From the NCBI GenBank assembly GCA_963716255.1, contig OY970303.1, positions 704,001 to 768,000 on the forward strand: DNA of 64,000 nt, in the 5' to 3' direction. Within the stretch, counting starts at the first letter, position 1. The number at the start of each line of letters is the position of its first letter. The translations under genes and the position numbers were made by a program. The DNA is from an uncultured Gemmatimonadales bacterium (GTDB taxonomy: Bacteria; Gemmatimonadota; Gemmatimonadetes; Longimicrobiales; Longimicrobiaceae). The notes beneath the pieces were generated by a model. That model saw only the letters and a list, made by a program, of their open reading frames with translations. It was not told the origin of the DNA and searched no databases. This document shows positions 3,379-50,485 of this stretch, piece after piece.

Positions 3379-3506
3379 GCGTGAGGGATTCCGGCCCGAA
3401 GGGGCGAGACCCGGCGGCTGTTTGCCGGGGCTCGACTCCGTTGAGCAGCGTTGTTTGCTGCTCTACGGAGCCGAAGCCCGACCCCGGCGCAGCCGGGGGC
3501 ACGCCC
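3379..3506 (-). repeat. Structured repeat family A, copy 1
   Basis: GGGCGTG...ATCCCTCACGC element on the minus strand, 30 nt after the EamA-family stop. Confidence 0.9.
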
Positions 3507-3536
3507 ACATCCGCCGTCACCGTATCCGTACGCCGT

Positions 3537-4478
3537 TCAAGACTTCTCGTTGGAAACGGACGTCTTCGCACTCGTGATGAACGCGACCGCGACGACGATG
3601 ACGGCCGCCGCCGCCAGCGTGCGCGCGGTCACCGCCTCGCCGGCGAGGAGCCACCCCAGGAACACCGCGACCACCGGGTTCACGTAGGCGTAGGTGGACA
3701 CCTTCGCCACCTCCACGTGCTTGAGCAGCCACACGTACGCGGTGAACCCCAGCCCGGACCCGAACACGACCAGGTACGCCAGCGCCAGCAGGCTCCTGCC
3801 GCTGACCGCCCCGGGGTCCAGCCTCCCCCACTCCCCCACCGCCGACCCCACCAGCACCAGCAGCGCCCCGCCCGCCAGCATCTCCATCCCCGTGGCCTGG
3901 AGCGGAGACTCCGGGAGCGCCGCCCGACGGGAGTACACCGAGCCCACGGCCCACAGGATGGACGCCAGCACCAGCGCCGCCGCGCCCACGCCGTCCGCCG
4001 CGCCGCCCCCCAGCAGCTCCGCGGGCCCCACCAGGATCCCCAGCCCCAGGAACCCGGTGGCGATCCCCGCCCAGGTGCGCCACCCGGGACGCACGCCCCC
4101 GCTGCGCCACCACTCCAGCAGCACCATCCACAGCGGCACGGTGGCCACCAGCAGCGCCGCCAGCCCGGAGGGGACGCGCTGCTCCGCCCAGGCCACGCCC
4201 CCGTTGCCCCCCACCAGGAGGAATGCGCCCACCACGGCGGTCTCCCGCCAGTGGAGCCGCGTGGGGCGGGGCGCGCCGCCGGCCCGCGTCCACGCGTACA
4301 GCGCCGCGCCCGACGCCAGGAAGCGAGCGCCCGCCATGAGGAAGGGCGGCAGCGTCTCGATGGCGAAGCGGATCGCCAGGTAGGTGGAGCCCCACACCAC
4401 GTACACCGCCGCGAAGGCCGCCAGAACCTGCGCCCGCGACACCGCTCCCGACCCGCTCGCCCGCTGCGGCACGCCCAT
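3537..4478 (-). CDS. EamA/DMT family transporter (YedA-like)
   Basis: AVYVVWGSTYLAIR, STYAYVNPVVAV; about 10 TM segments. Confidence 0.92.
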   Translation of the reverse strand: MGVPQRASGSGAVSRAQVLAAFAAVYVVWGSTYLAIRFAIETLPPFLMAGARFLASGAALYAWTRAGGAPRPTRLHWRETAVVGAFLLVGGNGGVAWAEQRVPSGLAALLVATVPLWMVLLEWWRSGGVRPGWRTWAGIATGFLGLGILVGPAELLGGGAADGVGAAALVLASILWAVGSVYSRRAALPESPLQATGMEMLAGGALLVLVGSAVGEWGRLDPGAVSGRSLLALAYLVVFGSGLGFTAYVWLLKHVEVAKVSTYAYVNPVVAVFLGWLLAGEAVTARTLAAAAVIVVAVAFITSAKTSVSNEKS

Positions 4479-4611
4479 CCCCCCGTTCGCCGGTTCACCG
4501 GGCGCCGCCCGGACCGGCCGGGAGGCGCGACGGGGGCAAAGATAACGGGGGCGCCCCGGGGATCGGGATCCCCGGGGCGCCCCCTCCGACTCCGCAGGTG
4601 CCGCGAACGGC

Positions 4612-5769
4612 TCAGCGCACCGTCACCAGCTTGCCGCCGCGCACCACTCCCATGGCGACCTCCTTGCCGGGGACGTCGCCGTTGCGGTCGAAGGCGATGC
4701 GGCCAGACACGCCCTCGTACGGGGCCACCCCCGAGCCCTCGACCCCCACCTTGGCAAGGTAGTCGCGGATCGCGCGGCGGTCGGTGCCCACCTCGCGGAC
4801 CGCCTGCGCGACCAGCTTGATGGCGTCGTACGTCATGGCGCCGCGGTGGTCGGGGTCCTCGTTGTAGCGCTGCCGGTACGCCCGCACGAACGCCTGCGCC
4901 GCCTCGGAGGCGCGGTCGGGGAGGAAGGCGGAGCTGACGTAGATCCCCTCGGCGTCCGCCCCGGCGTCCTTGACCCCGGTCATGCCGTCGGCGCCCACCA
5001 CCGGGCCGGTGAACCCGAGCCGGCGGGCCTCGCGCACCACCTTGATGCCGGCGTCCGCCTGGCCGGCGATCACCAGCGCGTCCATGCCGGAGCGCAGGGC
5101 GCGCTGCAGGTACGGGTCCACCCCGGCGGCGTCCTCCACCGTCGCGGGGAGGTAGGGGTCCTGCGCCACCACGCTCCCGCCGGCGGTGCGGAACGCGTCG
5201 GCGAAGGTCGCGGCCACGCCGCGCCCATACTCGTCGTTGGTGTAGAGCACCGCGGCGCGGCGCTTCCCCAGCCGCGAGTAGGCGTGCTGCGCCACCACCG
5301 GGCCGTGCCGCAGGTCGCTGGGGCACACCCGGAACGTCCAGTCGCCGGCCGCGGTCACCAGCGGGCTGCTGGACGCGGGGGAGATCTGCGCCACCGGCGA
5401 GCTGTCGTGGGCGCCCTCCTCCTCGTTGTAGATCTTGGCCGCCGCCAGCGTCGCCGCGGAGTTCAGGTGCCCGATCACGGCCACCACCGCCGTGCTGTCG
5501 CGCAGGAAGCCGGCGACGGGGATCGCCTTCTCCTTGTTCCCCTCGTCGTCCCTGAGCTCCAGCTTCAGCTTGCGGCCGTCGAAGTCGGCGCCCTCGTTGA
5601 GCTCCTCGACCGCCATCTCGGCGGCGAGCTTCATGGACCGTCCGTTGGCGAGGCTGAGCGGGCCGGCGACGCCGATGGCGATGGGCTCCGAGGACGCGGC
5701 GTCGCACCCGGCCAGGAGGACGAGCGGGAGCGCGATCCACCGGGGGATCGGGCGAAGGCGTGGTGTCAT
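4612..5769 (-). CDS. Branched-chain amino acid ABC transporter substrate-binding lipoprotein (LivJ/K-like)
   Basis: LLAGC lipobox, IGVAGPLS, VIGHLNS, NDEYGRG, YDA, GVSGRIAFDRNGD; no permease genes adjacent. Confidence 0.88.
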   Translation of the reverse strand: MTPRLRPIPRWIALPLVLLAGCDAASSEPIAIGVAGPLSLANGRSMKLAAEMAVEELNEGADFDGRKLKLELRDDEGNKEKAIPVAGFLRDSTAVVAVIGHLNSAATLAAAKIYNEEEGAHDSSPVAQISPASSSPLVTAAGDWTFRVCPSDLRHGPVVAQHAYSRLGKRRAAVLYTNDEYGRGVAATFADAFRTAGGSVVAQDPYLPATVEDAAGVDPYLQRALRSGMDALVIAGQADAGIKVVREARRLGFTGPVVGADGMTGVKDAGADAEGIYVSSAFLPDRASEAAQAFVRAYRQRYNEDPDHRGAMTYDAIKLVAQAVREVGTDRRAIRDYLAKVGVEGSGVAPYEGVSGRIAFDRNGDVPGKEVAMGVVRGGKLVTVR

Positions 5770-5861
5770 GCGTTCTCCGGTGTGGTGCACGGGCCGCGCG
5801 GCGCGGGCCCTGGAAACGGGGGCGGAACGGAACGGGGATGTGCCTGCGGAAGCGGGCGGCG

Positions 5862-6251
5862 TCAGCCGCGGTCGGGGTCCACCTCGCGGACCAGGTCGTC
5901 GAGCCAGGGCGGCGGCGGCCCCTCGGCGTCGTACGCGGCGCGGACCTCCCTCACCAGGCGGCGCACCACGCCCCGGCGCCGGGCCAGGGAAAGCTCGCCC
6001 ACCAGCACCCCCAGCGCGGCGGAGGCCACCTCGGCGCTCATCTCCACGTCGCCGCGGGATGCCTCGCAGACGTACCAGCGCTCCAGCTTCTGGCGGGTGG
6101 GGAGGTAGGGAACCGAGCCGTCCACGAACTTCTGCAGCCCGCTGGGGCTCATCCCCACCTCACGGGCGACGCCGCGGAGCGAAACGCTCGCCATGCGGGC
6201 CATGATCACCGCGCGGAGCTGGTCGAGGGGAACGCCGCTACGCACGGACAT
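5862..6251 (-). CDS. Small XRE-like helix-turn-helix protein
   Basis: SLRGVAREVGMSPSGLQKFVDG helix-turn-helix; divergent from the TPR-like gene. Confidence 0.75.
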   Translation of the reverse strand: MSVRSGVPLDQLRAVIMARMASVSLRGVAREVGMSPSGLQKFVDGSVPYLPTRQKLERWYVCEASRGDVEMSAEVASAALGVLVGELSLARRRGVVRRLVREVRAAYDAEGPPPPWLDDLVREVDPDRG

Positions 6252-6301
6252 TGACTGGCCCGGAGCCTCGCGCTATCTTGGGTTGTCCACTCTGTCCACT
6301 T
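6251..6301 (+). promoter_or_regulatory. sigma70-like promoter with tandem TGTCCACT operator-like repeat
   Basis: TTGACT (6251-6256), 17 nt spacer, TATCTT (6274-6279). TGTCCACTC-TGTCCACTT at 6284-6301. Inverted copy GTGGACAGAG at 6422-6431. Confidence 0.7.
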
Positions 6302-6515
6302 TCGGCGGGATTACACTATCAGTTTAAGGAACAGGGGGCGTCCGGGCAAGGAGCCGCTCGCCCGGACGGCCCCGTGGCGCGGCATGGCGGAGAGATCAGT
6401 TTCGTCCATTCTATTGCATTCGTGGACAGAGTAGCACAAATTGACGTTTAGCATTCGGACGGTCGCCCCGGTCAGCGGCCCCGCCCTGCAACGAACCAGA
6501 CCCGGAGGAACGCCC

Positions 6516-7787
6516 ATGAAGGTCAAGCTCGGCGCAAAAGAGTCGGTGCGGCCCCGCCGGGCGGGGCGCAGGTCTCCACCTCCTCCGGCCATCCTGCATG
6601 GCCCGGACGAGACGCTCGACGGCGTCTTCATCCTGGACGAGATGCGCAACGGGATCGGCGTGCTGCTCTGGCAGTCGCTGCACGACGTCATCCTGTGGGC
6701 GTCGGTCGCGCCCGGGGAGCGCCGCGGGCTGTTCCGGCCGGAGTCGGTGAGGCGGCGGATGGAGGCGCTGGTGGCGCAGGGCGCGGACCCGGTGCTGGAA
6801 ACGGCGCTCACCTCGCTGGCGGCGCTCTCGACCGACCCGGACACGGCGCGCCCGGAGGCGGTGGGCTCCATCTGCCTGCAGATCGCGCGCTGGGCGGACG
6901 CGCACGGCTCGGCGGCGACGGCGCTCGCCTTCGCGCAGGGGGCGGCCATGGCCTCTCCGTGCGACGCCTCGGCGGGGCTGCTGGCCGGGTCGCTGGCGCG
7001 CAAGCTGGGCGAGCGGGCCCGGGCCGAGACCTGGCTGCGCCGCACCATCGTGCTGGGACGCCGCAACGGTGACCGCTGCTCGCTCTTCCAGGCGTGCCTC
7101 GCGCTCGGGGAGATGCAGGCGGAGCGCGCCGCGGTGGAGGCGCAGCGCGGCAACGTGGAGGCGGCGCGGGCCGACGTGGAGGCCGCGCGCGGCCTCTTCC
7201 TGCGGGCGTTCCGCGGAGCGCGGCGCAGCGGCTTCCGCGAGATCAAGGCGCAGGCGCTGCACGGGCTCTTCCGGCTGGCGGCGCAGGGCGGGCGCACGGA
7301 CGAGGCGGACGTCTACGCCCGCTCCACGCTCCATGCCTACGGCCGCAGGCACCCGCGCGTGCCGCAGGTGGCCCGCGACATCGGCACCTTCTGGCTGGAG
7401 CGCGGCAAGTACACGGAGGCGCTGGCCGCCCTGCGGCTCCTCCTCCCCTACGCCCGGCGCCCCGCGGAGCGGGTGGAGGCGCTGGCCGCCGTGGCCCGTG
7501 CGGCCGCGGGCGCCCGCAACGAGCAGGCCTTCGACGACGCGGCCGACGAGGCGCTCCAGCTCCTCCGCCGCACCCCGCCCGAGGAGATGAAGAGCAGTCC
7601 GCTGCTGGAGCTGGCCCGCGGCGCCGCCGAGATGGAGCGCTGGGAGAGCGCCGAGCGCGTCGCGCAGCTCGCCCTGGACACCGCCGTGCGCCACGGCGAG
7701 GACCAGGTCTCCAGCGGCGCCGAGGCCCTCCTCACCGCCGTCTGGACGCACGGCGGCGGAATGCGCCTGCAGCCCGCGCTCATGTAG
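6516..7787 (+). CDS. Tetratricopeptide-repeat-like all-helical protein
   Basis: GGAGG RBS before ATG 6516; Ala-rich helical repeats with TPR-like signatures (e.g. DIGTFWLERGKYTEALAAL). Confidence 0.72.
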   Translation: MKVKLGAKESVRPRRAGRRSPPPPAILHGPDETLDGVFILDEMRNGIGVLLWQSLHDVILWASVAPGERRGLFRPESVRRRMEALVAQGADPVLETALTSLAALSTDPDTARPEAVGSICLQIARWADAHGSAATALAFAQGAAMASPCDASAGLLAGSLARKLGERARAETWLRRTIVLGRRNGDRCSLFQACLALGEMQAERAAVEAQRGNVEAARADVEAARGLFLRAFRGARRSGFREIKAQALHGLFRLAAQGGRTDEADVYARSTLHAYGRRHPRVPQVARDIGTFWLERGKYTEALAALRLLLPYARRPAERVEALAAVARAAAGARNEQAFDDAADEALQLLRRTPPEEMKSSPLLELARGAAEMERWESAERVAQLALDTAVRHGEDQVSSGAEALLTAVWTHGGGMRLQPALM

Positions 7788-7805
7788 CCCTCACCCCGCC
7801 GAAAC

Positions 7806-7848
7806 GAACCGGCCCTGCACGCGTCGCCGTGCAGGGCCGTTCTGTTTT
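7806..7848 (+). terminator. Rho-independent terminator
   Basis: CGGCCCTGCAC / GTGCAGGGCCG stem followed by TTCTGTTTT. Confidence 0.7.
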
Positions 7849-7885
7849 CGGGTCAGGCTGAAACCCGGACGCCTGCGCGATGCCC

Positions 7886-8014
7886 GCGTGAGGGATTCCG
7901 GCCCGAAGGGGCGAGACCGCGCGGCTGTTTGCGCGGGCTCGACTCCGTTACGCAGCGTTGTTTGCTGCGTTACGGAGCCGAAGCCCGACCCCGGCGCCAG
8001 CCGGGGGCACGCCC
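7886..8014 (-). repeat. Structured repeat family A, copy 2
   Basis: Same element, 25 nt after the stop of the 8040-8558 gene. Confidence 0.9.
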
Positions 8015-8039
8015 GGACCCCGCCCTGCAGGGATGTCGT

Positions 8040-8558
8040 TCAGCAGGTCTTCTTCGCCACCGTGTCCGCCATGACCCACCCGCGCTCGCCCCGCGCGAAC
8101 TCCAGCTGGAACTGCCTGTCGCACAGCACCGGCGGGATGAAATTGCTGGCGGTGACGGTGGAGGTCACGTGCATGGTGAGCCGGTCCGGGGAGCGGCTGG
8201 CGAGGTTGAGGTGCACGAACACGCCGTTCTTGGGGACCCAGCACGACATGCCCAGCTCCATCTCCAGGCAGTTGAAGGAGCTGTCCGGGACCGTGGCCAC
8301 GAACGGGCGGTCCACGGCGGCGGCGATCCGGTCGGTCTCCACGATCTCGCCGACGGCGCGCAGGCTCCCGCCCCGGAACGACTTGACGTCCAGCAGGAGC
8401 GGGCCCGTGCCGGCTCCCGGGGGCGCCGACCGGCGGGCGTCCCGCTCGGCGAAGCTCACCGTCTGGCGGACGACGTCCAGGTAGTCCGCCTCGGAAGGCG
8501 TCTCGGAGCCGCAGGCGGCCGCGAGCAGGAGAACGGACGTGAGGTGGAGCCTTTTCAT
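8040..8558 (-). CDS. Hypothetical lipoprotein
   Basis: MKR...LLLAAAC lipobox; four additional Cys. Confidence 0.7.
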   Translation of the reverse strand: MKRLHLTSVLLLAAACGSETPSEADYLDVVRQTVSFAERDARRSAPPGAGTGPLLLDVKSFRGGSLRAVGEIVETDRIAAAVDRPFVATVPDSSFNCLEMELGMSCWVPKNGVFVHLNLASRSPDRLTMHVTSTVTASNFIPPVLCDRQFQLEFARGERGWVMADTVAKKTC

Positions 8559-8683
8559 CGCGCGGGGAGCGGAGGTCGGGGGTCGCGTGCGCTGTCCATC
8601 TGCTTCGGCAGGAAGTACATTAGCGCCTGCCGAAGGGTCCGCGAAAGGCCCGCCACCGCCCGGAAACCGCCCCTGCTCCGTAT

Positions 8684-8959
8684 ATGAGACTCTGGAAGCT
8701 CACTCCCCGGCACGACTCCCTCTGGTGGTGCGTGGACGGCAAGGATCCCTGGCAGCCGCACCAGGACAAGGCGTTCGGCTTCGTGGTGCGCGCCGAGAGC
8801 GAGGAGGAGGCGCGCTGGCTGGCCCACGAGAGCGGCGGCGGCGAGAACGACTCGCTCCCCGGCGTGCGTCCCTGGGTGGAGGAGCAGTATTCCACCTGCG
8901 AGGAGCTTCCCGCCGAGGGGCGACGGGGGGTGGTGCTGGTCAACTTCCGCCACGCGTGA
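8684..8959 (+). CDS. Small hypothetical protein
   Basis: 91 aa with protein-like composition (DKAFGFVVRAESEEEAR) and GC3 bias. Confidence 0.65.
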   Translation: MRLWKLTPRHDSLWWCVDGKDPWQPHQDKAFGFVVRAESEEEARWLAHESGGGENDSLPGVRPWVEEQYSTCEELPAEGRRGVVLVNFRHA

Positions 8960-8994
8960 GGGGTTCCTTCCAGAAGGATTCAACTGCAGGGTTC

Positions 8995-9132
8995 GGGCGT
9001 GCCCCCGGCTGTCGCCGGGGTCGGGCTTCGGCTCCGTAAGCCCGCAAACAACGCGGGCTAACGGAGTCGAGCCCCGCGAAACTGCCCGCGGCGATACTCG
9101 CGCCCCTTCAAACGGGCCGAAATCCCTCACGC
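8995..9132 (+). repeat. Structured repeat family A, copy 3 (small indels)
   Basis: GGGCGTG...ATCCCTCACGC, 35 nt after the stop at 8959. Confidence 0.88.
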
Positions 9133-9304
9133 GGGGCTCGCGCTGGCGTCCGCCGGCGTCCACTCCTCCGCGCTGCCGCGAAACTCCGCCGTCCATTCCT
9201 CCGTATCGCTTCCAGGTGCCGGAGATCCGGTGCCACGATGCCCTGAACGGGGACCGGCGCGAAGGCCGCGCCGGGTCTGCCCTTTCCGATCCACGGAGGA
9301 GACC

Positions 9305-9559
9305 ATGCTGGAGCAGCTGCACCGCACGCCCGAGGAGCGCCGCAAGACCGAGATCGTCCTGCACCTGGGCGTCATCGCTTTCGCGCTCTACAACTTCACC
9401 GAGCTGGCCGCGCTGCTGGGGCCCGCCCCGGTGCTTGCCGGGATCGTGACGGGCCTCGGCGGCTTCCTCTACTCGCAGTGGCTCCGCACCCGGTGGAACG
9501 ACGACCTCCGCCTGGTCCCGGTCCCCGTCGAACGCCCGCGCCGCCTCCAAGCGATGTAG
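9305..9559 (+). CDS. Small two-TM membrane protein
   Basis: GGAGGAG RBS before ATG 9305; two hydrophobic helices. Confidence 0.65.
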   Translation: MLEQLHRTPEERRKTEIVLHLGVIAFALYNFTELAALLGPAPVLAGIVTGLGGFLYSQWLRTRWNDDLRLVPVPVERPRRLQAM

Positions 9560-9597
9560 CGGACTCCTCCCCCAGGCCCAAGCGGGTGGAGACGAAC

Positions 9598-9637
9598 AAC
9601 GGCGGAACGGCGCACCCATCAGCGCCGTTCCGCCGTT
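9598..9637. terminator. Long hairpin between convergent genes (probable terminator)
   Basis: AACGGCGGAACGGCGC / GCGCCGTTCCGCCGTT perfect inverted repeat. Confidence 0.6.
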
Positions 9638-9661
9638 CGCCGTTTCCGTAGTACCCCCATC

Positions 9662-9800
9662 ATCCTGTTCGGAGGGAGACTCGCCGGCAGTATGGCGAGG
9701 CTCCCTCCGGCGCAGGGAGACACCGGGGCAGTTTCCGGTGGCTCCCTGCGCCCGCGGAGGAGACCGGCGGGGCTGTTTCCGCCGGGCTCCGTAGCGGCCC
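9662..9800 (-). repeat. Structured repeat family B, copy 2
   Basis: Three GAGC...AAACWGCC/ATACTGCC...TCTCC hairpins just after the TonB receptor stop. Confidence 0.82.
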
Positions 9801-9814
9801 CCTGCTACAATCTC

Positions 9815-12427
9815 TTAAAACTCGTACTTGACGCGCAGCAGCGCCATGCGCCCGATGAACGGCGCGCCCGGGAAGCTCCGGTGCTCCTCGTCCAGCAGGT
9901 TCTGCACGCTCAGCTGGACGGTGGCGCCGGAGAACCGCGGCAGAGTGTAGCCCAGGTTCAGGTCCAGCAGCGTGGCGTCGTCCACGCAGTCCTCGGCGAG
10001 CGGGGCGGTGGCGAAGTCGCCGCCCAGGCACTTGGTGCCGATGTACACGCCCGAGTTCACCGGGAACCCGGCGTTGTAGCGCACGCGCGCCTCGCCGTTG
10101 AAGCCCCAGCCGTCGTTGCGGTAGAGGAGCGCCATGCTCCCCTTCCGCTTGGGCGCGTTCAGCGTCACCAGCCCGGCGTTGCTGCTCTGGAAGCGGTCCT
10201 TGTTGACGAACGAGGCGTTGGCCGAGAGCGACCACTGGTCGGTGAGCAGCGCCGTGGCCGAGAGGTCGGAGCCCCACAGCTCGATGGTCTCGTCCACGTT
10301 GGTGTAGGTGACCAGCAGCTGCCCGCCGTTGGCGTTGACGTCCGCCGAGGAGACCACCCCCACCGGCACCGACGCCAGGTTGGGCGTGAGCTGCTGCGCG
10401 GTGGCGGCGGCCTGCGCCTGCGCCTGCGCGAGCGGGAGGCCGGCCGCCTGGAAGAAGGGGACGAGCCGCGGCACCAGGTACGCTCCCACCTGCGGGCCGT
10501 TGAGGAGCAGGAGCGGCGTCTGGATGGTGAGCGGGGTGACCAGGTTCTCCTTCTGCGACCACCACAGGTCGGCCGCCAGGAGCAGCTTGCCGCCCAGGAT
10601 CCCCTTGTAGCCCGCCTCCAGGGTGTTGGAGCCGGACTCGCGGATGGGATCGACGTCGGGGAGGTCGAGCTCCGAGAGCGGGTGCGGGGTGTTCCCCTGC
10701 CCCACCACGCTCAGGTAGTTGGTCCCGATGTCGGTGCCGGTGGGGCGCAGCCCGCTCAGGTACGTGACCAGCGCCGCCGGGAGCGGCTGCCCGCGCGCGG
10801 CGGCCCCCTGCGCCACCGCGCCCACCGCCGCCGCCCAGTACGCCGCCGCGTTGGCGGGGACCAGGGTCTGCGGGGCGCCGGGGGTGAAGGGCGAGCGCAT
10901 GAGGTAGCTGCCGTCCGCCTGGCGGAAGCGGAAGCCGGTGTCGCCGGTGCCCTGCACGCGCAGGCTGTAGCCCAGCTGCGCCAGCTGCAGGTTGGGGATG
11001 GAGGAGCCCAGGTCCAGGAACTGGTTGAGGGAGCTGGGGGTGGAGAAGGCGCGGTTGAAGGAGACGCGGAAGGCCTGGTTCTCGGCGGGCTTGAACACCA
11101 GCGCCGCGCGCGGGGAGAAGAGCGGCTCCGGGAGCGCGGAGTGGGTGTCCACCCGTCCGGCGAGCACCAGGTCCAGCATGGACGAGATGGCCGTCTCGGA
11201 CTGGAGGTAGGCGCCGAACTCGTTGGTCTCGTCGTCGTCCTCGTACAGGCCGTTGATGGTGCCGTTGGTGACCGGGGTGGTCAGCGTGTAGTCGGCGCCG
11301 TAGGTGAAGTTCTGCCGCTCGCCCAGCCGCATGCCGTGCTGCAGCTGCCCCACCAGAAGCCTGGACTGGTCCTGGATGGGGGCGCCGTTGCGGAGCAGGT
11401 AGGTGTCGCCGGCGTCGCTGGTGTTGAGGTAGACCTGCGCGAACAGCCGGTTCCAGTTGGTGCGCAGCTGGTAGTAGGTGTAGCGCCAGTCCCTGACCTG
11501 CGCGGCGCCCAGGCCGGTCAGCTCCACGCCGCTCACCGAGTTGGTGGTGCCCACCGAGGCGATGGCCGTCAGGTCCGGCCGCACGCGCCAGTCGGCGCGC
11601 GCCTCGCCGCTCCAGCGCTCCACGTCGTTGTCGCGCAGCCCGATGCGGTCGATGCGCGCCTGGGCTTCCGGCTGGTCGATCCCCACGGCGCGCATCAGGT
11701 CGGCGCGGTAGAACGGCAGGTTGGAGGCGAACTTGGTCACCTCCGCCGTTTCGGCGGGATCGGTGTAGCCCCACTCGGTGCCGCGCAGGTACTGGCCGGA
11801 CACCTTGAACCCGAAGTCCTCGCCCAGCAGGTGCGAGGTGCGGAAGGTGCCGTGGAACACGTCGCGCTCGCCGCCCGCCACGGTCAGGCTGTTCCCCTGG
11901 TACTCCAGCGGGGAGCGGGTGATCATGTGCAGGATGCCGTTGGCCGTGTTGGGGCCGTAGAGCGCCGCCCCCGGCCCGAGCACCACCTCCATGCGCTGCA
12001 GGTCCTCGTTGTTGCTGGGGACGAAGTGCAGCAGGTTGACGCGCAGCGAGGGGACGCCGGCGATGCGGTTGTCGGTGAGGGCGTGCAGCGAGCCGGAGAA
12101 GATGTTGTTGAAGCCGCGCGCCACCACGTTGGACGACTGGAGCCCGGTGCTCGCGATGTCCACGCCGGGGACGGAGCGCAGGTGCTCGGTGGCGCTGACG
12201 GCGGGGCGCTCGTCGATGGCGCGCTCCCCCACCACCTCCACCCGGGCCGGCGCGTTCAGCGCCTTTTCCGGGCGCTTGGACGCCGAGACCACGATGGGAT
12301 CCAGCTCCACCCCCTTGAGGGTGTCCTGCGCCGCCGTCTGTGGGCGCTCCTGCGCGCCCGCCTGCGGCACGGCACAGAGGGCGACCACGACCGCGGAAAC
12401 GACGCTGCCTGCACGGCGACTGCGCAT
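9815..12427 (-). CDS. TonB-dependent outer membrane receptor
   Basis: Signal peptide, LDPIVVSASKRPE TonB-box region, plug (RMEVVLGPGAALYG), C-terminal VQNLLD...GR...VKYEF. Confidence 0.93.
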   Translation of the reverse strand: MRSRRAGSVVSAVVVALCAVPQAGAQERPQTAAQDTLKGVELDPIVVSASKRPEKALNAPARVEVVGERAIDERPAVSATEHLRSVPGVDIASTGLQSSNVVARGFNNIFSGSLHALTDNRIAGVPSLRVNLLHFVPSNNEDLQRMEVVLGPGAALYGPNTANGILHMITRSPLEYQGNSLTVAGGERDVFHGTFRTSHLLGEDFGFKVSGQYLRGTEWGYTDPAETAEVTKFASNLPFYRADLMRAVGIDQPEAQARIDRIGLRDNDVERWSGEARADWRVRPDLTAIASVGTTNSVSGVELTGLGAAQVRDWRYTYYQLRTNWNRLFAQVYLNTSDAGDTYLLRNGAPIQDQSRLLVGQLQHGMRLGERQNFTYGADYTLTTPVTNGTINGLYEDDDETNEFGAYLQSETAISSMLDLVLAGRVDTHSALPEPLFSPRAALVFKPAENQAFRVSFNRAFSTPSSLNQFLDLGSSIPNLQLAQLGYSLRVQGTGDTGFRFRQADGSYLMRSPFTPGAPQTLVPANAAAYWAAAVGAVAQGAAARGQPLPAALVTYLSGLRPTGTDIGTNYLSVVGQGNTPHPLSELDLPDVDPIRESGSNTLEAGYKGILGGKLLLAADLWWSQKENLVTPLTIQTPLLLLNGPQVGAYLVPRLVPFFQAAGLPLAQAQAQAAATAQQLTPNLASVPVGVVSSADVNANGGQLLVTYTNVDETIELWGSDLSATALLTDQWSLSANASFVNKDRFQSSNAGLVTLNAPKRKGSMALLYRNDGWGFNGEARVRYNAGFPVNSGVYIGTKCLGGDFATAPLAEDCVDDATLLDLNLGYTLPRFSGATVQLSVQNLLDEEHRSFPGAPFIGRMALLRVKYEF

Positions 12428-12626
12428 GCACACCTCCGGATGGGGGATGGGGACCGGACTTCGGTGGGACTGCCAGGGAGTATCGGCCGGCGCGGACGCG
12501 CCGAGGTGCGGCTGCGGTCCCATCCCGCCCGCGGGGAGCTGGGGGCGGCGGAGCTACGGGGACCGTGGGAACGATGAATGGTACGATACGGCCGGAGGCG
12601 GCCGGCGGGCAAGGACTTCGAACGGC

Positions 12627-12776
12627 AGGGGACAGGGGACAGCCTGCAACGGCGACCCCCTCCCCCGGCCCCTCCCCGCAAGGGGGAGGGGAGAACGACA
12701 CGACGCACATGGGGGTCAGGAAGCCCTCCCCCAGAATTGGGGGAGGGTGGCGAGCCTAAGCGAGCCGGGTGGGGGC
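12627..12776. repeat. Stacked short repeats: GGGRACA heptamers and CCCTCYCC...GGGAGGG REP-like hairpins (family C)
   Basis: Near-identical blocks recur at 34143-34308, 44803-45108, 50512-50554 and 60159-60187. Confidence 0.75.
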
Positions 12777-12801
12777 CCCCGCGGACGCTAGCGCAAAACC
12801 C

Positions 12802-12929
12802 GCGTGAGGGATTTTGGCCCGAAGGGGCGAGACCCGGCGCAGTCTGCCGGGGCTCGACTCCGTAAGCCCGCGTCGTTTGCGGGCTTACGGAGCCGAAGCC
12901 CGACCCCGGCGCCAGCCGGGGGCACGCCC
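12802..12929 (-). repeat. Structured repeat family A, copy 4
   Basis: 22 nt after the dehydrogenase stop. Confidence 0.9.
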
Positions 12930-12951
12930 GAACCCGCCGTCGCCGTCCGTC

Positions 12952-14007
<1,056 letters not shown>

Positions 14008-23449: not shown

Positions 23450-23458
23450 CGGCGCCGC

Positions 23459-30542: not shown

Positions 30543-30671
30543 GCGTGAGGGATTTCGGCCCGGAGGGGCGAGACCCGCGGGCAGTTTCGCGGGGCTCGAC
30601 TCCGTTGCAGACGGTCGTTTCGTCTGCTACGGAGCCGAAGCCCGACCCCGGCGCCCGCCGGGGGCACGCCC
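30543..30671 (-). repeat. Structured repeat family A, copy 5
   Basis: 22 nt after the recJ stop. Confidence 0.9.
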
Positions 30672-33982: not shown

Positions 33983-34115
33983 GGGCGTGCCCCCGGCTGG
34001 CGCCGGGGTCGGGCTTCGGCTCCGTAAGCGAGCAAACTACGCTCGCTAACGGAGTCGAGCCCCGGCGGAAACAGCCCCGCCGGGTCTCGCCCCTTCGGGC
34101 CGGAATCCCTCACGC
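33983..34115 (+). repeat. Structured repeat family A, copy 6
   Basis: 45 nt after the serine hydrolase stop; followed by family C hairpins (34143-34273). Confidence 0.9.
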
Positions 34116-43770: not shown

Positions 43771-43883
43771 CGCGGGACCGAGGGGGTGGGCGCGGCGGAA
43801 GCTGGACGTGGCGACGACGGACGAACGGTAACGATTCCCCGCGCTGGTGGCGAGTTCCCCATCCGGGGCGGAACGGGCGGGGC

Positions 43884-43937
43884 TTGATCGAATTGCCTGA
43901 TTGGTATATATTTCATCACTGAATTAAACACCAGTCA
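43884..43937 (+). promoter_or_regulatory. sigma70-like promoter with imperfect inverted repeat
   Basis: TTGATC (43884-43889), 17 nt spacer, TATATT (43907-43912) in an AT-rich island; TGATTGGT...ACCAGTCA arms. Confidence 0.6.
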
Positions 43938-43988
43938 ACCTGTTCGCTCGGTGACCGCCGGGCGAGCCACCAGAAAGGACGAGACACC

Positions 43989-44609
43989 ATGGCCGCCACC
44001 GTCACCGACCTCCTGAGCGTGCGCGAGGCCGCCGAGCAGCGCCGCTCCATCCGCGCCTACGTGCAGGAGCCCATCCCCCACGCGGACCTCGAAGAGATCC
44101 TGGAGACCGTGCGGCTGGCCCCCTCCGCGTTCAACGTGCAGCCGTGGCGCTTCGTGGTGGTGGAGACGCCCGCGATGAAGCAGCGGCTCGCCGCGGCCGC
44201 GTACAACCAGCGGCAGGTCACCTCCGCGCCCGTCGTGATCGTGCTCTACACCGACATGGCGGAGGTCCTGGCCACGGTGGACGAGGTGCTGCACCCCGGC
44301 ATGCCCGCGGCGCAGAAGGCCGGGGCGCGCGACACCCTGCTCAGGACCTTCGGGCCGCAGAGCGAGGCCGACCGCGAGGCGTGGGCCGCCGGGCAGGGCT
44401 TCATCGCGCTGGGCTACCTGCTGCTCGCCGCCGAGGCGCACGGCTACCAGACGTCGCCCATGGCCGGCTTCGACGCCGGGGCCGTCAAGGAGCTCCTGGG
44501 GCTCCCGGAGAACGTCCGCGTGCCGGCGCTGGTGGCCATCGGCCGGGGCGCCGAGGAAGGGTTCCCGCACCACCGGCACGAGCTGGAGCGCATCGTCCGT
44601 TACGCGTGA
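43989..44609 (+). CDS. NAD(P)H nitroreductase family protein
   Basis: RRSIRAY, APSAFNVQPWRFVVV, PMAGFD. Confidence 0.93.
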   Translation: MAATVTDLLSVREAAEQRRSIRAYVQEPIPHADLEEILETVRLAPSAFNVQPWRFVVVETPAMKQRLAAAAYNQRQVTSAPVVIVLYTDMAEVLATVDEVLHPGMPAAQKAGARDTLLRTFGPQSEADREAWAAGQGFIALGYLLLAAEAHGYQTSPMAGFDAGAVKELLGLPENVRVPALVAIGRGAEEGFPHHRHELERIVRYA

Positions 44610-44647
44610 TCGGGGGTTTGTTCGGAAAGGCTTTTGACGGCGGATCT

Positions 44648-44776
44648 GGGCGTGCCCCCGGCTGGCGCCGGGGTCGGGCTTCGGCTCCGTAACGCAGCAA
44701 ACAACGCTGCGTAACGGAGTCGAGCCCGCGCAAACAGCCGCGCGGTCTCGCCCCTTCGGGCCGGAATCCCTCACGC
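44648..44776 (+). repeat. Structured repeat family A, copy 7
   Basis: 38 nt after the nitroreductase stop; family C hairpins follow at 44803-44845 and 45052-45108. Confidence 0.9.
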
Positions 44777-45173
44777 GGGGCTCGCGCTGGCGTCCGCTGG
44801 GGCCCCTTCCCCCCGGCCCCCTCCCCCAATTCTGGGGGAGGGGGAGCACGACGACGACAGGCTGTTGCAGTTCCCGGGATCTGCGCAGGGAGGCCGGGGG
44901 TGGGCGGTGCGTTTGTTCGAAGCCAGCGTGATCTCGCCCTCGCTCCAGCGGCGGGCGAGTGCTCTGCGAGTCCCTTCGGGTGTCGCACCGCTGGAGGAGC
45001 CTCCCCCGGCCGACCACAAGCACCGGAGCCCGCCGGAACACACCGCTGTTGGCCCCCTCTCCCGGAATTGGGAGAGGGTGGCGAGCCTCAAGCGAGCCGG
45101 GTGAGGGCCAAACGGCGGGGAGGGGCGGCCGACGTGCTCGGCCGCCCCTCCCGTTTTCGTGCTCCGCGGCCGG

Positions 45174-45566
45174 CTACCGCGGCTTTGGCGCCGGCCTGAT
45201 CCTGACCGTGACGTACCGGGACGGCTGCTGCAACTGGAAGCGCGCGTCCACCGGGCACGCGTTCGGCATGGGAGCGACCCAGCCTCCCGGCACATGGAGA
45301 ATCGCGAGCGAGTCCGCCCGCGGCCCCGGATCGAAGGCCATGGGGTCGTTGGGATCGCAGTCACCCCGTGTCGAGGGAATCTCCCTGCCGCTCACGTGGC
45401 CGGCAGAGGAGCCCTGATTCACGATGGAAACGAGCTCGGCCACGGTCAACTGCCCGGCCCGGCTCCCGGTGGGTGGCGCGCTCGCGGGCGGCGGCGCGCC
45501 GGCGCAGCCGGCGAGGAGCGAGGCCGCGAGCGTACCGGCGGAAAGCAACCGACGAGATAGGGGCAT
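45174..45566 (-). CDS. Hypothetical lipoprotein
   Basis: LLAGC lipobox; GGAGG RBS upstream. Confidence 0.55.
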   Translation of the reverse strand: MPLSRRLLSAGTLAASLLAGCAGAPPPASAPPTGSRAGQLTVAELVSIVNQGSSAGHVSGREIPSTRGDCDPNDPMAFDPGPRADSLAILHVPGGWVAPMPNACPVDARFQLQQPSRYVTVRIRPAPKPR

Positions 45567-45700
45567 GGGTCCACCTCCGTCCGGGGTGAGCGGCGGCGGC
45601 GGATGCGGCCGCCTCCCGAACGGTACGCACGCAAACGACGAAGGAAAAGGCTTTTGAAGGGAAGGCCCAGCGGCAGGAAATCACGGCGCGGCAGCGACCT

Positions 45701-45829
45701 GCGTGAGGGATTCCGGCCCGAAGGGGCGAGACCCGCGGGCAGTTTCGCGGGGCTCGACTCCGTTGCAGACGGTCGTTTCGTCTGCTACGGAGCCGAAGCC
45801 CGACCCCGGCGCCCGCCGGGGGCACGCCC
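45701..45829 (-). repeat. Structured repeat family A, copy 8
   Basis: 19 nt after the dnaG stop; nearly identical to copy 5. Confidence 0.9.
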
Positions 45830-45848
45830 CACGCGCAGCGGCCGCAGT

Positions 45849-47714
45849 TCAACGCCGTTGCCCCTGGGCGTTCTGCGCCGTCCGCAGGATCCCCGACTTG
45901 CGCAGCAGACCCCGCTGCCGCATCAGCGCCGTCACCTGCATCATCTCCTCCAGCAGCACCCGCCTCTGCTCCGCGGTGCCGATCTCCATCTCCCGCCCGA
46001 TCTCCGTGAGCCGCTCCTCGTACGGGCGCGCCAGCAGGTCGCGGATGTTGGCCTGGAAGAAGTCCTCCGCGTCCGGGATCTCCAGGGCCTCCGGGTCGCC
46101 GCGCAGCTCCTCCAGCTCGGCCGCGACCTCGGCGGGGAAGCCCGCCACCCACTCCCCCTCCGCGTCGCGGCTCCCTTCCAGCTCGATCAGCTTCTCGAAG
46201 ATCGTCCGGTAGACCGGGGAGCGGAACTCCTCGGCGGCCACCACGTTGACGGTGCGCTCCACCCACGCCTCGTCGCGCAGCATCAGGAGCAGCAGGTTGC
46301 GCTCCGGCCCCAGGCTGGTGACCACGCGGGGCGCCGGCCGCGCGCCGAAGTCGTCCGCCCGGCGCCCCTCCCCCCGCTCGCGGCGCTCGGGGAGGCCCCG
46401 GGAGCGGTTGTCGCGCGCGGGGGCGTCCGCCACTTCCTTGTGGAGCGTGTCCTGCGGCACGCCGGTCTTTTCGGAGAGGCGGCGCAGGTACACGCCGCGC
46501 AGCACCTCGTCGCTGGCGGCGCGGATGGTGGGCATCAGCGCGTCGATGGCCCGCCGCGTCCCCGCGATGCTGGTGAAGAAGCCCTTGCGCTCCAGGATCT
46601 GCATCTTGCGCTCGAGCACGTCCACCGCGTCGTCCAGGTACCTGCGGAGCGCCGCCTCGCCCTTCGCGCGCACCAGCGAGTCCGGGTCCTCGCCCTCCGG
46701 GAGCGTCGCCACCAGCACCTCCACCCCCGCGCGAAGCAGCTCGTCCCCCGAGCGGAAGGTGGCCTTGAGCCCCGCCTTGTCGCTGTCGTACAGGAGGATG
46801 GCGCGCGGCGCGTAGCGGCCGATCAGCTCGGCCTGCGCCTCGGTCATGGCGGTGCCCAGCGGCGCCACGGCGTTCTCCACCCCGTGCGCGGCCAGCGACA
46901 CGTAGTCCATGTACCCCTCCACCACCAGGACCGCTTCCGCCTTGCGGATGGCGCCGCGGCTCCACCCCAGCCCGTAGAGCAGGTCGCCCTTGTGGTAGAC
47001 CGGGGTCTCGGGGGAGTTGAGGTACTTGGGGATGTGCTCCTCGGCCCTGCCCAGGATGCGCCCCCCGAAGGCCACCACGCGCCCGCCCAGGTCCTCGATG
47101 GGAAAGATGATGCGCCCGCGGAAGGCGTCGTACGGCTCGCGGTTCCCCTTCTGCGACTCCTTCACCAGCCCCAGCGACAGCAGCAGCTCGTTGGCAATCC
47201 CCTGCTTGCGGGCCGCGTCGCCGAAGGCGCTCCACTCCTCCGGCGCCCACCCCAGCCCGAAGCGCTCCGCCGCCTTCCGGCCGATCCCCCGCCCTTCCAG
47301 GTACTCGCGCGCCTTGCGGCCCTCCGCGTCGTCCCACAGGCGGCGGCGGAACCACTCCGCGGCGAAGTCGTTGACCTCGTACAGCCTGCGGTTGGGGTCG
47401 TCCTCGGGGCGGCGTTCCTGCCGCTCGGGGATCTCCACCCCCGCGCGCGCCGCCACGAACCTCACCGCGTCCAGGAAGTCCATCCCCAGGTGCTTCATGG
47501 GGAAGGAGAAGATGTCCCCCGCCTCGCCGCAGGTGAAGCACTTGAAGACGTTCTTGGACGGGTCCACCGAGAAGTTGGGCCCGCTGCCGCCATGCAGCGG
47601 GCACGGCCCGCGGAAGGTCCTCCCCGAGCGCTTGAGGCGCGTGTACTCGGAGACGATCTCCACCAGGTCGCCGCGGTGGCGCACCTCGTCGATGACGGCG
47701 TCGGGGATGGACAT
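45849..47714 (-). CDS. dnaG: DNA primase
   Basis: CPLH...CFTC zinc finger, FGGR, KYLNSPET, VEGYMD, YDSDKAG, DPD. Confidence 0.97.
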   Translation of the reverse strand: MSIPDAVIDEVRHRGDLVEIVSEYTRLKRSGRTFRGPCPLHGGSGPNFSVDPSKNVFKCFTCGEAGDIFSFPMKHLGMDFLDAVRFVAARAGVEIPERQERRPEDDPNRRLYEVNDFAAEWFRRRLWDDAEGRKAREYLEGRGIGRKAAERFGLGWAPEEWSAFGDAARKQGIANELLLSLGLVKESQKGNREPYDAFRGRIIFPIEDLGGRVVAFGGRILGRAEEHIPKYLNSPETPVYHKGDLLYGLGWSRGAIRKAEAVLVVEGYMDYVSLAAHGVENAVAPLGTAMTEAQAELIGRYAPRAILLYDSDKAGLKATFRSGDELLRAGVEVLVATLPEGEDPDSLVRAKGEAALRRYLDDAVDVLERKMQILERKGFFTSIAGTRRAIDALMPTIRAASDEVLRGVYLRRLSEKTGVPQDTLHKEVADAPARDNRSRGLPERRERGEGRRADDFGARPAPRVVTSLGPERNLLLLMLRDEAWVERTVNVVAAEEFRSPVYRTIFEKLIELEGSRDAEGEWVAGFPAEVAAELEELRGDPEALEIPDAEDFFQANIRDLLARPYEERLTEIGREMEIGTAEQRRVLLEEMMQVTALMRQRGLLRKSGILRTAQNAQGQRR

Positions 47715-47842
47715 GCTACGAATCGCGCCTGCGGCGGGTCACGCGCGGGTCAATTAAAACCCGAACAAAAACCGAATACAACCCGAAGATAACGAGTTTC
47801 ACGTTTCTGCGCGAGAGGGGAGCGGGTCGGTCCACACAGGAC

Positions 47843-50242
47843 TCACGCGAACTCCACCACCGTCACGCCCGTCCCGCCCTCGAAGTGCTCGCCGGGGCGG
47901 GCGACGGTGATGCGCCGGTCTTGCTTGAGCAGCTCCTGCACGCGCTCCCGCAGCGCCCCGGTCCCCTTGCCGTGGATGATGCGGAACGAAGGGAGCCCGG
48001 CCAGGATCGCGTCGTCCAGCGCCTTGCCCAGGCGCATCTCCAGCTCGTCCACGCGCAGGCCGCGCAGGTCCACCTCGGGGTGCGCTTCGCCCGCGCCGGA
48101 GGCGTAGCCGCCGCCCCAGCCGGTGCTCTGCCTGCGGGGCTCCTGGTCGCCCGCGGGGAGCACCGACAGGTCGTCGCGCGGCAGCAGCATGCGCAGCGAC
48201 CCGGCCTCCACCATGGCCTTGCCGTCGCGCACCTCCACCACCGTGCCCGTGCGCCCCAGCGACTCGATGCGTACCCGCGTCCCCGCCTCCAGCACCAGCT
48301 CGCGCCGGGGCCCGCCTCCCCCGCCGCCGCCCGTCCGCGCGCCGCGCCTGGGCTCGCGCGGGATGCGCTCCTTCTGGCGCGTGGCCTCCTCCTCCACGCG
48401 CCGCCGGGCCGCCCGCGCGGCGTCGTCCAGGCGGTCGGCGTCCGCGGCCTCGCGCAGCTCGCGGATCGCCGCCTCCACCTCCGCGCGCGACTGGAGCAGC
48501 AGGTCGCGCGCCTGCTGCCGGGCGCGCCGCTCCGCGTCCTTTTCGCGGCGCGCCAGCTCCCGCACCCGCTCCTCCAGCTCCGCCTTCAGCGCCTCCGTCT
48601 CCCGCAGCCGCGCCTCCGCGCGCAGCGTCTCCGAGGCCAGCCGCTGCTCCTTCGCCTCCAGGTCCAGGAGCAGCTTCGCCACGTCGCGCTCGCCCTGCGG
48701 CAGCGCCGCCTCCGCGCGCTCCAGCACCGCCTCCGGGAGCCCCAGCCGCCGCGCGATCGCCAGGCCGTACGAGCGGCCCGGGAGCCCCTTCACCAGGCGG
48801 TAGGTGGGCTGTAGGCGCTCCGCGTCGAACTGGAGCGAGGCGTTGACGATGCCGCGCTCGTCCGTCGCCAGCAGCTTGAGCGACCCCAGGTGCGTGGTCG
48901 CCACGGTGAACGCCGAGCGGCGCGTGAGCTCCACCAGGATGGACGCCGCCAGCGCGCCGCCCTCCACGGGGTCCGTGCCGCTGCCGATCTCGTCCGTGAG
49001 CACCAGCGACTCCCAGCCCGCGCGGTCCAGGATCTCGCGCAGGTTCTTGAGGTGCGCCGAAAAGGTGGAGAGCGACGCCTCGATGGACTGCTCGTCGCCG
49101 ATGTCCGCGAACACGTCGCGGAACACCGGCAGGCGCGACCCCTCCGCCACCGGCGGCACCACCCCGCTCTGCGCCAGCAGCGAGATCAGCCCCATCGCCT
49201 TGAGCAGCACCGTCTTGCCGCCGGTGTTGGGGCCGGAGATGAGCAGCGTGCGCTCCCCCGGGTCCATGCGCAGGTCGAAGGGGACCACCCGCTCGCCCCG
49301 GGCCAGCAGGATGGGGTGGAAGCCGCGCACCACCACGTACTCCTCCGTCCCCGCGGTGAGCACCGCGGGGATCGCCGCGTCCGCCTTGCGGGCGTAGCGC
49401 GCCCGCGCGAACACCGCGTCCAGCCGCACCAGCGCGTCCAGCGTCGCCAGCAGCTCGGGCTGCTGAGGCCGCAGGCGCACGGTGGCTTCGCGGAGGATGC
49501 GCAGCACCTCGCGGCTCTCGTTCGCCTCCAGCTCGCGCAGGCGGTTCATCATCTCCACCGCCACCGGCGGCTCCACGAACAGCGTCGCCCCCGTCCCCGA
49601 CTCGTCGTGCACGATGCCGCCCACCTCGCCGCGCCCCTCGCGGCGGATGGGGATCACGTAGCGCCCCTCGCGCACCGTCACCGAGGCGTCCTGCACCTGG
49701 TGCTGCGGCGGCAGCGAGGCCGCGAAGGCGGCCAGCCGCTCCACGATGCGCGAGCGCATTCCCTTGATCTCGCGCCGGAAGCGGTACAGCTCCGGCGACG
49801 CCCCGTCGCGCACCTCGCCGTGCTCGTCCAGGATGCGCTCGATCTCCGCCTCCTCCTTTTCCAGCTGGAGCAGCGTGCCGGCCAGGAAGCCCAGCGTGGG
49901 GAACGCCGCCGCCGCGGGCAGCACCGAGCGCCGCACCACGCGCGACGACGCCAGCAGCGTCCCCACGTCGCGGAGCGCCCGCCCGTCCAGCACGCTCCCC
50001 TCGATGCGCAGCTTCTTCAGCGGCTCGCGCACCTCCGGGATGGGCGGCACCGCCCACCCCTCGTCGCGCAGCAGGAAGCGCATCATCTCCCCCACCGTCG
50101 CCAGCTCGCCCGTGATCCACCCCGCGTCGTGCGAGGGGCGCAGGGCGCGCACCGCCTCCGCTCCCAGCGCGGAGGTGGCGTGGCGTGCGACGATGTCCAG
50201 GGCTTCCCCGTATTCGAGGACGTTCAGGGCGTGCGAGTTCAT
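47843..50242 (-). CDS. mutS2: Endonuclease MutS2 (with Smr domain)
   Basis: SGPNTGGKT, DIGDEQSIEASLSTFS, DEIGSGTDP, IIHGKGTGALR. Confidence 0.96.
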   Translation of the reverse strand: MNSHALNVLEYGEALDIVARHATSALGAEAVRALRPSHDAGWITGELATVGEMMRFLLRDEGWAVPPIPEVREPLKKLRIEGSVLDGRALRDVGTLLASSRVVRRSVLPAAAAFPTLGFLAGTLLQLEKEEAEIERILDEHGEVRDGASPELYRFRREIKGMRSRIVERLAAFAASLPPQHQVQDASVTVREGRYVIPIRREGRGEVGGIVHDESGTGATLFVEPPVAVEMMNRLRELEANESREVLRILREATVRLRPQQPELLATLDALVRLDAVFARARYARKADAAIPAVLTAGTEEYVVVRGFHPILLARGERVVPFDLRMDPGERTLLISGPNTGGKTVLLKAMGLISLLAQSGVVPPVAEGSRLPVFRDVFADIGDEQSIEASLSTFSAHLKNLREILDRAGWESLVLTDEIGSGTDPVEGGALAASILVELTRRSAFTVATTHLGSLKLLATDERGIVNASLQFDAERLQPTYRLVKGLPGRSYGLAIARRLGLPEAVLERAEAALPQGERDVAKLLLDLEAKEQRLASETLRAEARLRETEALKAELEERVRELARREKDAERRARQQARDLLLQSRAEVEAAIRELREAADADRLDDAARAARRRVEEEATRQKERIPREPRRGARTGGGGGGGPRRELVLEAGTRVRIESLGRTGTVVEVRDGKAMVEAGSLRMLLPRDDLSVLPAGDQEPRRQSTGWGGGYASGAGEAHPEVDLRGLRVDELEMRLGKALDDAILAGLPSFRIIHGKGTGALRERVQELLKQDRRITVARPGEHFEGGTGVTVVEFA

Positions 50243-50358
50243 CCGGCGGACCGCGGGTGTCGTGGCGAGTTCTGCGAGCTTGGCGTGCGGGTCCTGTACC
50301 CGGAAGGGGGGGCGTGGTTCGGGGGGTTTTTACGGCAACGGCTTTGGAGTGCGGGTTC

Positions 50359-50485
50359 GGGCGTGCCCCCGCTGGCGCGGGGTCGGGCTTCGGCTCCGTA
50401 GGCGAGCAAACAACGCTCGCCAACGGAGTCGAGCCCCGGCAAACTGCCGCCGGGTCTCGCCCCTTCGGGCCGAAATCCCTCACGC
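50359..50485 (+). repeat. Structured repeat family A, copy 9 (antisense to flanking genes)
   Basis: Same element with a shortened first hairpin. Confidence 0.88.

Follow-up and report, generated by a model that had tools for sequence, protein, structure and literature searches.

Flavo-1 (RF01705 in Rfam) is a motif of Bacteroidota whose alignment rows carry the termini GCGUKAGGGAU...AGCCCGACC (PMC2864571, supplement 5 part 49), and whose hits in Flavobacterium psychrophilum are, according to the available passages of PMC9723704, either sense or antisense, many of them lying outside transcribed regions. On conjugative plasmids, folded single-stranded DNA (ssDNA) of the Frpo and ssi types is placed on the transferred strand of the F and IncI1 leading regions, an Frpo being presented, in the accessible parts of these sources (PMC9849209, PMC11541004, PMC12672017), as a hairpin of ~330 nucleotides (nt) that rebuilds -35 and -10 boxes. 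The element considered here is a repeat of about 130 nt, nine copies of which occur in a stretch of 64,000 nt (hereafter the window; contig OY970303.1 of assembly GCA_963716255.1, positions 704,001 to 768,000) from an uncultured member of the Longimicrobiaceae, phylum Gemmatimonadota. Our preferred reading, tentative and held with slightly less than even confidence, is that the element serves as a signal on ssDNA, where host proteins most likely prime synthesis, and that its four-way form became, in one genus of Gemmatimonadota, a repeat resembling repetitive extragenic palindromes (REP).

Fold, strand and family in the source genome

The source genome of the window comprises 8.42 Mb at 73% GC, and gene starts and stops are those of our own codon-based calls. 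The strand predicted to fold, hereafter the folding strand, is the Flavo-1 strand (GCGTGAGGGAT...CACGCCC), opposite to the one adopted in a preliminary description of the window. Folded as DNA, it is predicted to close with a terminal stem of 5 bp, followed by a three-way junction that bears an outer hairpin and by a long-range helix, P1, inside which a four-way junction bears three inner hairpins (copy 7), and the same frame was recovered in three of four additional copies. The partner of the GGGCT arm is the distant 3' arm and not, as had been drawn, the nearby GAGCCC. Folding z-scores were -6.1 for DNA on the minus strand and -5.1 for RNA on the plus strand.

Stem S1 is perfect in 678 of the 744 parsed copies of the source genome, against ~76 when its arms are shuffled, and takes 19 sequence types, while the variable P1 pair 12/101, between whose positions the arms vary freely, is complementary in 767 of 779 parsed copies relative to 628 expected by chance. 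Outside this genome, pair 12-101 is paired in all 60 sequences, with four pair types, and the terminal K-M pair is complementary in 188 of the 190 non-Gemmatimonadota sequences that have a partner (210 examined, 20 partnerless), the two remaining pairs being G-T wobbles on the folding strand. The terminal stem forms in 107 of 125 four-way sequences, with 22 sequence types, against 35 after shuffling. The earlier proposal that the structure is conserved as single-stranded nucleic acid is supported; base-pairing of its six 7-bp stem variants is likewise borne out, and the A-A mismatch that it noted is retained in 626 of 668 copies genome-wide.

GNA loops are extra-stable in DNA. When loops were counted on the folding strand relative to the other one, in 733 distinct copies of the source genome and in 192 outside sequences, all of them related and not independent, GCGNAGC stood at 180:1 and 81:0, respectively, and GNA triloops at 855:25 and 122:25; GNYA was compared with GNRA in the same sets (543 vs 8 and 29 vs 17), and the RNA tetraloop cUNCGg occurred on the other strand once and five times. 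These loop types point to DNA on the folding strand, and the element is predicted to fold as ssDNA.

A profile built from the nine window copies yielded 840 matches at E<1e-5 in the source genome (811 full length), split 424 to 416 between strands, with 710 distinct sequences among the 774 copies with intact ends. Of these matches 837 are intergenic, with 295 in convergent and 47 in divergent gaps, and between co-directional genes 264 copies lie sense and 231 antisense (p=0.15). A start 19-45 nt after a same-strand stop, as had been described, holds for eight of the nine window copies but is rejected as a general rule on the 264:231 split.

The pattern of the termini matches exactly 764 times in the source genome and in none of 300 other genomes of the phylum. 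The element is present in the eight relatives of the genus that were searched, four of 32 further relatives gave few or weak matches, and records that bear the title Longimicrobiaceae or Gemmatimonadota contain near-identical copies; the two copies of genome G019 may be mis-binned DNA. A divergent subfamily with termini GGGCGAAT...ATCGCTTTCG retains the same helices (G000:C1:619735, 5455107, 6138809, 7798370, 1510939, 1512215 and 7840265, G000 being the source genome). In soil metatranscriptome contigs (single run X1, word share 0.05) depth is high on the element, which is explained by multi-copy collapse.

Relatives in Flavo-1, plasmids and phages

The resemblance of the termini to Flavo-1, proposed in the preliminary description, is real: the published termini match the reverse strand of the element, which carries the terminal words GCGUKAGGGAU...AGCCCGAC. 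This pattern was also found at 109 viral loci and at least 124 genome loci, mostly Bacteroidota by title; when 20 loci of each kind were tested in Rfam, two of the viral and five of the genome loci passed the Flavo-1 cut-off. The element itself fails it. No Rfam hit was obtained for the whole window at gathering score, nothing meaningful and no ribozyme for window bases 1-14000 at E<=10, no Flavo-1 hit (42-bit gathering cut-off) at E<=10 among 150 scored candidates of the source genome, and none for five Gemmatimonadota loci. Considering the shared termini and covariation, together with the absence of Rfam hits, the element is, as judged by sequence comparison, a long four-way-junction form of the Flavo-1 scaffold that lies outside RF01705. 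A search of open-licence PMC and bioRxiv texts turned up no publication that connects Flavo-1 with DNA, plasmids or phages, and the plasmid hairpin may already be described in CUP, ssi and Frpo papers of 1991-1997. Several Bacteroidota Flavo-1 copies (L151, L153, L186, L203, L266, L267 and L270) carry other REP-like palindromes inserted in the inner arm, and a genome titled Lachnospiraceae (L147/G333) bears 37 Flavobacterium-type copies, its label being possibly wrong.

With a viral four-way copy (L024) as query, 2,161 of 72,556 plasmids were matched at E<=1, 1,076 of them over 80% of the query, and 1,843 of the matched plasmids are conjugative. A window copy and an IncN plasmid copy have CCCGAAGGGGCGAGAC and GGCTCGA in common. 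Model R1, built from 60 non-Gemmatimonadota sequences picked with shared termini, located 14 copies in the seven plasmid stretches that carried one: four in an IncN-typed plasmid and one, weak, in a second IncN plasmid, three in a Ralstonia plasmid, two in each of pWW0 and F, one, weak, in pYKBS026 and one in a Bacteroides plasmid; ColE1 gave no match. In all seven stretches the copies of each plasmid keep to one strand, even where the next genes run the opposite way, and this strand serves as template for whichever of the ardA, ardC, ssb or ccg genes the stretch has. Outside copies repeatedly have ArdA, ArdC and RadC genes as neighbours, encoded opposite to the folding strand. According to the passages of PMC11541004 at hand, ard/ssb-type genes use the transferred strand as their template, and the relaxase belongs to the lagging region; from this statement and the gene order, we infer that the folding strand is the one that F and the IncN plasmid L503 transfer.

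In F, the copies (58,090-58,172 and 63,478-63,560) lie inside duplicated 620-bp cassettes, on the template strand and 3' of the long hairpin, with ssb and the gene in the ygeA position (at 64,032), respectively, ~470 nt downstream; by position, these cassettes hold Frpo2 and Frpo1 (PMC9849209, as far as its available text describes them). The scaffold is predicted to fold separately from the long Frpo hairpin, on its 3' side, which rejects its membership among Frpo ssDNA promoters, and no -35/-10 boxes were seen in the stretches scanned. When four scaffold words were compared with the Frpo/ssi supplement of PMC11541004, one was found, once, at the cut end of the Salmonella candidate 'Frpo* 6', which runs into the first half of the scaffold (supplement file 7). 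In IncN, copies are located at operon borders of the establishment region.

Each of four viral records searched whole holds one copy. Among microviruses, grouped by eye, the folding strand is the coding strand in eight of 12 groups, namely WZ-2015a, SD_MC_78 (a degenerate copy with no R1 match), bajarodmic 65 and 39, mar63, RodF7_7, tortoise 1 and the L311 clade. The heptamer after GGGATN has GAAGCGG as majority at all seven places in 254 family sequences, and GAAGCGG is also present in the phiX174 F-G hairpin and in ColE1; we take it to be the consensus of primosome assembly sites (PAS), for which a literature search gave no confirmation. One gokushovirus copy directly follows the capsid gene, as the phiX174 primosome hairpin does in the available part of PMC9865509. 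In tailed phages, a small terminase gene is close by at 16 of 80 loci, and eight loci follow a likely large terminase gene, these belonging to a few clades; the scaffold is seen by the terminase on either side or strand in L018, L021, L023, L024, L032-L038, L041-L043, L084, L342 and L344.

Probable module exchange and competing readings

Modules S1, S2 and the outer hairpin combine freely with one another (p=0.55 for S1 x S2, 0.15 for S1 x P0, and 0.53), and neighbouring copies of the source genome share modules no more than chance (p 0.25-0.46), which speaks against local hopping. A sample of relative G008 (344 kb in 20 stretches of 7.6 Mb, ~87% identical, 48 copies) was compared with the source genome: each of the 14 orthologous copies differs in at least one module, 13 of them in S1 type, and 11 aligned junctions comprise seven cases of presence or absence without target duplication, three shared sites and one inverted remnant. 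Whole arms have probably been exchanged between copies, by recombination or template switching. The extra DNA at junctions includes a leader of 20-40 nt and a variable tail, the latter a mosaic in which module T follows 376 of the 840 copies and hairpins of the kind flanking DUF559 genes (module B) follow 421 on one side and one on the other; module B1 alone counts 355 copies in the genome.

Short forms in which the terminal part and outer hairpin are kept and the four-way core is lost number 23 (G000:C1:666365, 2056304, 3302516 and 20 more), and lone T motifs, considered as empty sites, are mostly such internal deletions. GTTC adjoins 347 copies and resembles what we take to be the IS91 target, a likeness only. 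The IS481-like element found inside copies comprises four full and four short derivatives, always at one position of the repeat. Consistent with the preliminary description, neither terminal inverted repeat nor target duplication is seen: there is only the 5-bp terminal stem, and flanks vary without duplication, which rejects a miniature inverted-repeat element of DDE type.

An ssDNA signal is favoured because what transferred plasmid strands and most microvirus coding strands share is single-strandedness, not transcription direction. In the proposed scheme, the signal would have arisen on the strand that enters the cell with conjugative plasmids and ssDNA phages, with priming of the complementary strand for host proteins as its most likely role. 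A four-way plasmid or phage type would then have entered one Gemmatimonadota genus and given rise to the chromosomal family, which would have spread to ~840 REP-like copies, hairpin modules being likely exchanged between them. Copies may be spread and overwritten through recombination or template switching at folded ssDNA, with the enzymes of the host, and pairing would be kept because only folding copies serve as donors or are useful.

A bolder version, possible although doubtful, sees in Flavo-1 not an RNA but the form that an ssDNA priming signal common to several phyla, with AGGGAT/AGCCCGA as its fixed core, takes in Bacteroidota. F, IncN, IncP-9 and PromA plasmids and many microviruses would use this signal to make the incoming strand double-stranded by means of host enzymes; in Longimicrobiaceae it would have turned into a self-spreading, transposase-free repeat that copies itself and swaps arms through the very priming it triggers.

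Several points weigh against the priming signal: (i) the bias of copies relative to replication is not significant in the source genome (444:396, p=0.10); (ii) the R1 scores that rank the nine window copies first (31-41 bits, next match 14.6) are partly circular, since R1 was built from termini-selected sequences; (iii) a window copy used as query gives only weak plasmid matches (271 at E<=5, with no match spanning more than 80% of the query); (iv) the folding strand is non-coding in four of the 12 microvirus groups (mar49, MG945282, the L012 clade and L319), and mar49 and mar63 have near-identical elements in opposite orientations; (v) R1 gave no meaningful match on the phiX174 PAS, G4 ori-c or ColE1, so that membership in phiX-type PAS/ssiA is rejected, the heptamer alone being in common, and the main type of the source genome is devoid of GAAGCGG; (vi) terminase-adjacent copies of tailed phages are unaccounted for by priming; (vii) many plasmid copies follow a stop codon by 2-67 nt, as would equally be expected of an RNA 3'-end element; and (viii) template switching can also produce perfect stems in the absence of selection, and the differences between orthologues could be independent insertions at the same site.

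An alternative that we consider unlikely is that of a non-autonomous REP/REPIN-like element moved by a dedicated small nuclease, either DUF559 (Vsr-like), the sole candidate encountered, or an HUH enzyme since lost, with the plasmid and phage copies as passengers or later recruits. Its intergenic location, high copy number and lack of target duplication fit this proposal, as do the inverted tail-to-tail arrangement of all 26 close pairs, the exclusive presence of insertion sequences (IS) inside copies (IS481-like 8/8, IS4-like 4/4, IS5-like 1/1), the one-sided module B, and the varied position and orientation in microviruses, suggestive of mobility. The DUF559 gene of the source genome (G000:C1:125138-125611, L142) is flanked by inverted module B copies, and the 13 strong DUF559 hits, from eight of nine genus genomes, have flanking hairpins wherever flanks are readable (L291-L302, L305). 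This small Vsr-like nuclease with RAYT-style inverted flanking hairpins is, in itself, a candidate non-HUH REP system.

On the contrary, no DUF559 gene is flanked by the element, and polarity to one strand within plasmids is unexpected of passengers. Spread by an HUH transposase, one of the two options of the preliminary description, finds no enzyme: neither Y1/RAYT (PF01797) nor Y2 of IS91/ISCR (PF04986) occurs in the source genome, and each is present in one of the eight other genus genomes, the Y1 being an IS200-like gene not flanked by the element. A REP/REPIN-RAYT pair with a cognate Y1 and an IS91/ISCR derivative are rejected on these grounds. Genes between close copies are ordinary, those between inverted repeats in a scan of the source genome are DUF559, IS elements and one 353-aa frame, and none flanked by inverted copies of the element is nuclease-like; neither was a recurring nuclease found beside 326 outside loci. 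As for other candidates of the source genome, the one inspected of two GIY-YIG genes is UvrC-like and has no nearby copies, and the single reverse transcriptase candidate has no copy within 3.5 kb. A low-GC island (G000:C1:1015000-1017400, L146), where a membrane-like gene precedes a reverse transcriptase frame of 520 aa, is probably a defence locus.

More improbable is an incoming-strand ssDNA signal with a role other than priming, whether a Frpo-type accessory to transcription, a site excluding SSB or RecA, or a terminator on single-stranded templates. Its placement in the two Frpo cassettes of F, ahead of ssb and the gene in the ygeA position, the IncN copies at operon borders, and the extension of 'Frpo* 6' into the scaffold speak for it, but the element lies outside the long Frpo hairpin, shows no promoter boxes where scanned, and its microvirus copies are left unaccounted for.

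Least probable of all, and very much so, is the RNA 3'-end stabiliser or terminator implied by the orientation and 3'-UTR role first proposed, since a same-strand gene on the 5' side of 559 of the 837 intergenic copies (median gap 26-28 nt), many plasmid and phage copies after stop codons and the RNA z-score are met by the lack of sense bias between co-directional genes, by loops that fit DNA on the other strand, by the sense or antisense Flavo-1 hits of F. psychrophilum in the passages cited above, and by plasmid copies that hold one strand even between genes of opposite direction.

The link between chromosomal repeat, Flavo-1, plasmid leading regions and microviruses, drawn from sequence and covariation, would stand even if priming were wrong. 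It bears on how the incoming single strand of a plasmid becomes double-stranded in a new host and on complementary-strand start sites in non-coliphage microviruses, for which it gives a concrete candidate of 80-130 nt, with two copies in F beside Frpo1 and Frpo2. Should the priming signal prove true, Flavo-1, catalogued as an orphan 'RNA', would shift to the DNA column, and a REP-like family would have originated from a mobile-element signal amplified hundreds-fold in one genus, with no transposase found.

Window copies and comparison with known systems

All nine copies of the preliminary description are present in the window at the coordinates it gave, five on one strand and four on the other. 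The genes recJ (30694-32439), dnaG (45849-47714) and mutS2 (47843-50242) each adjoin a copy, an adjacency that is likely due to chance because copy density is high. Elsewhere in the source genome, 19 tRNA genes are arrayed on one strand (G000:C1:3979719-3981636).

Table 1. Copies of the element and companion modules in the window, and IS elements inside copies elsewhere in the source genome (strand is that of the folding strand for copies).
Feature	Position	Strand	Remarks
Copy 1	3379..3506	+	GCGTGAGGGAT...CACGCCC
Copy 2	7886..8014	+	
Copy 3	8995..9132	-	P3/P4 arms longer
Companion modules by copy 4	12742..12801		DUF559-type REP-like hairpin (B1) and T module; no strand
Copy 4	12802..12929	+	
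Copy 5	30543..30671	+	22 nt beyond recJ stop
Copy 6	33983..34115	-	
Copy 7 (reference)	44648..44776	-	Predicted DNA fold: terminal stem, three-way junction, long-range P1, four-way junction
T module	44777..44797	+	GCGCTGGCGTCCGC
Copy 8	45701..45829	+	19 nt beyond dnaG stop; inverted relative to copy 7
Copy 9	50359..50485	-	116 nt before mutS2 start; antisense class; sole window exception to after-stop placement
IS element inside copy (L284)	G000:C1:639607-641056		
IS element inside copy (L285)	G000:C1:4228424-4230126		
IS element inside copy (L286)	G000:C1:7602806-7604046		
IS element inside copy (L287)	G000:C1:443370-443790		

The REP-like character that had been suggested for the element is supported. 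REP, BIME and REPIN sequences likewise form hundreds of intergenic palindromes, enriched between convergent genes and arranged as inverted doublets, they build mosaics with other repeats, and they lack target duplication and serve as targets of IS elements. On the contrary, the element has no RAYT/Y1 in its genome, a larger branched fold, and plasmid and phage homologues on a fixed strand. A likeness to attC, suggested by its GTT/AAC words, was discarded, their order being reversed and the source genome having GTG/CAC.

With the phiX174 PAS (n'-pas, ssiA), most family members share GAAGCGG on the 5' arm and GCGAAGC mini-hairpins, and the gokushovirus copy its post-capsid position, whereas the AGGGAT/AGCCCGA core is absent there. 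Frpo and ssi are folded ssDNA on the transferred strand of leading regions, where the predicted fold of the scaffold probably lies as well; the scaffold is, nonetheless, a separate branched unit of 80-90 nt located 3' of the Frpo. The CUP-controlled regulon of IncN also has repeated elements at operon borders of the leading region, where scaffold copies lie, although the accessible portion of PMC5371602, citing Delver & Belogurov 1997, describes CUP as an ArdK operator plus promoter.

In structural detail the element resembles Flavo-1, which has identical termini on the reverse strand, the P1 helix with an A-G mismatch and the covarying pair 12-101. Flavo-1 bears one unbranched inner hairpin instead of a four-way junction, its Rfam model omits the terminal stem and outer hairpin, and its hosts are Bacteroidota and not Gemmatimonadota, with 2-37 copies by the same pattern in the Bacteroidota-type genomes checked relative to ~840 in the source genome. 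Finally, Flavo-1 is catalogued as RNA, whereas the evidence on this element points to DNA.

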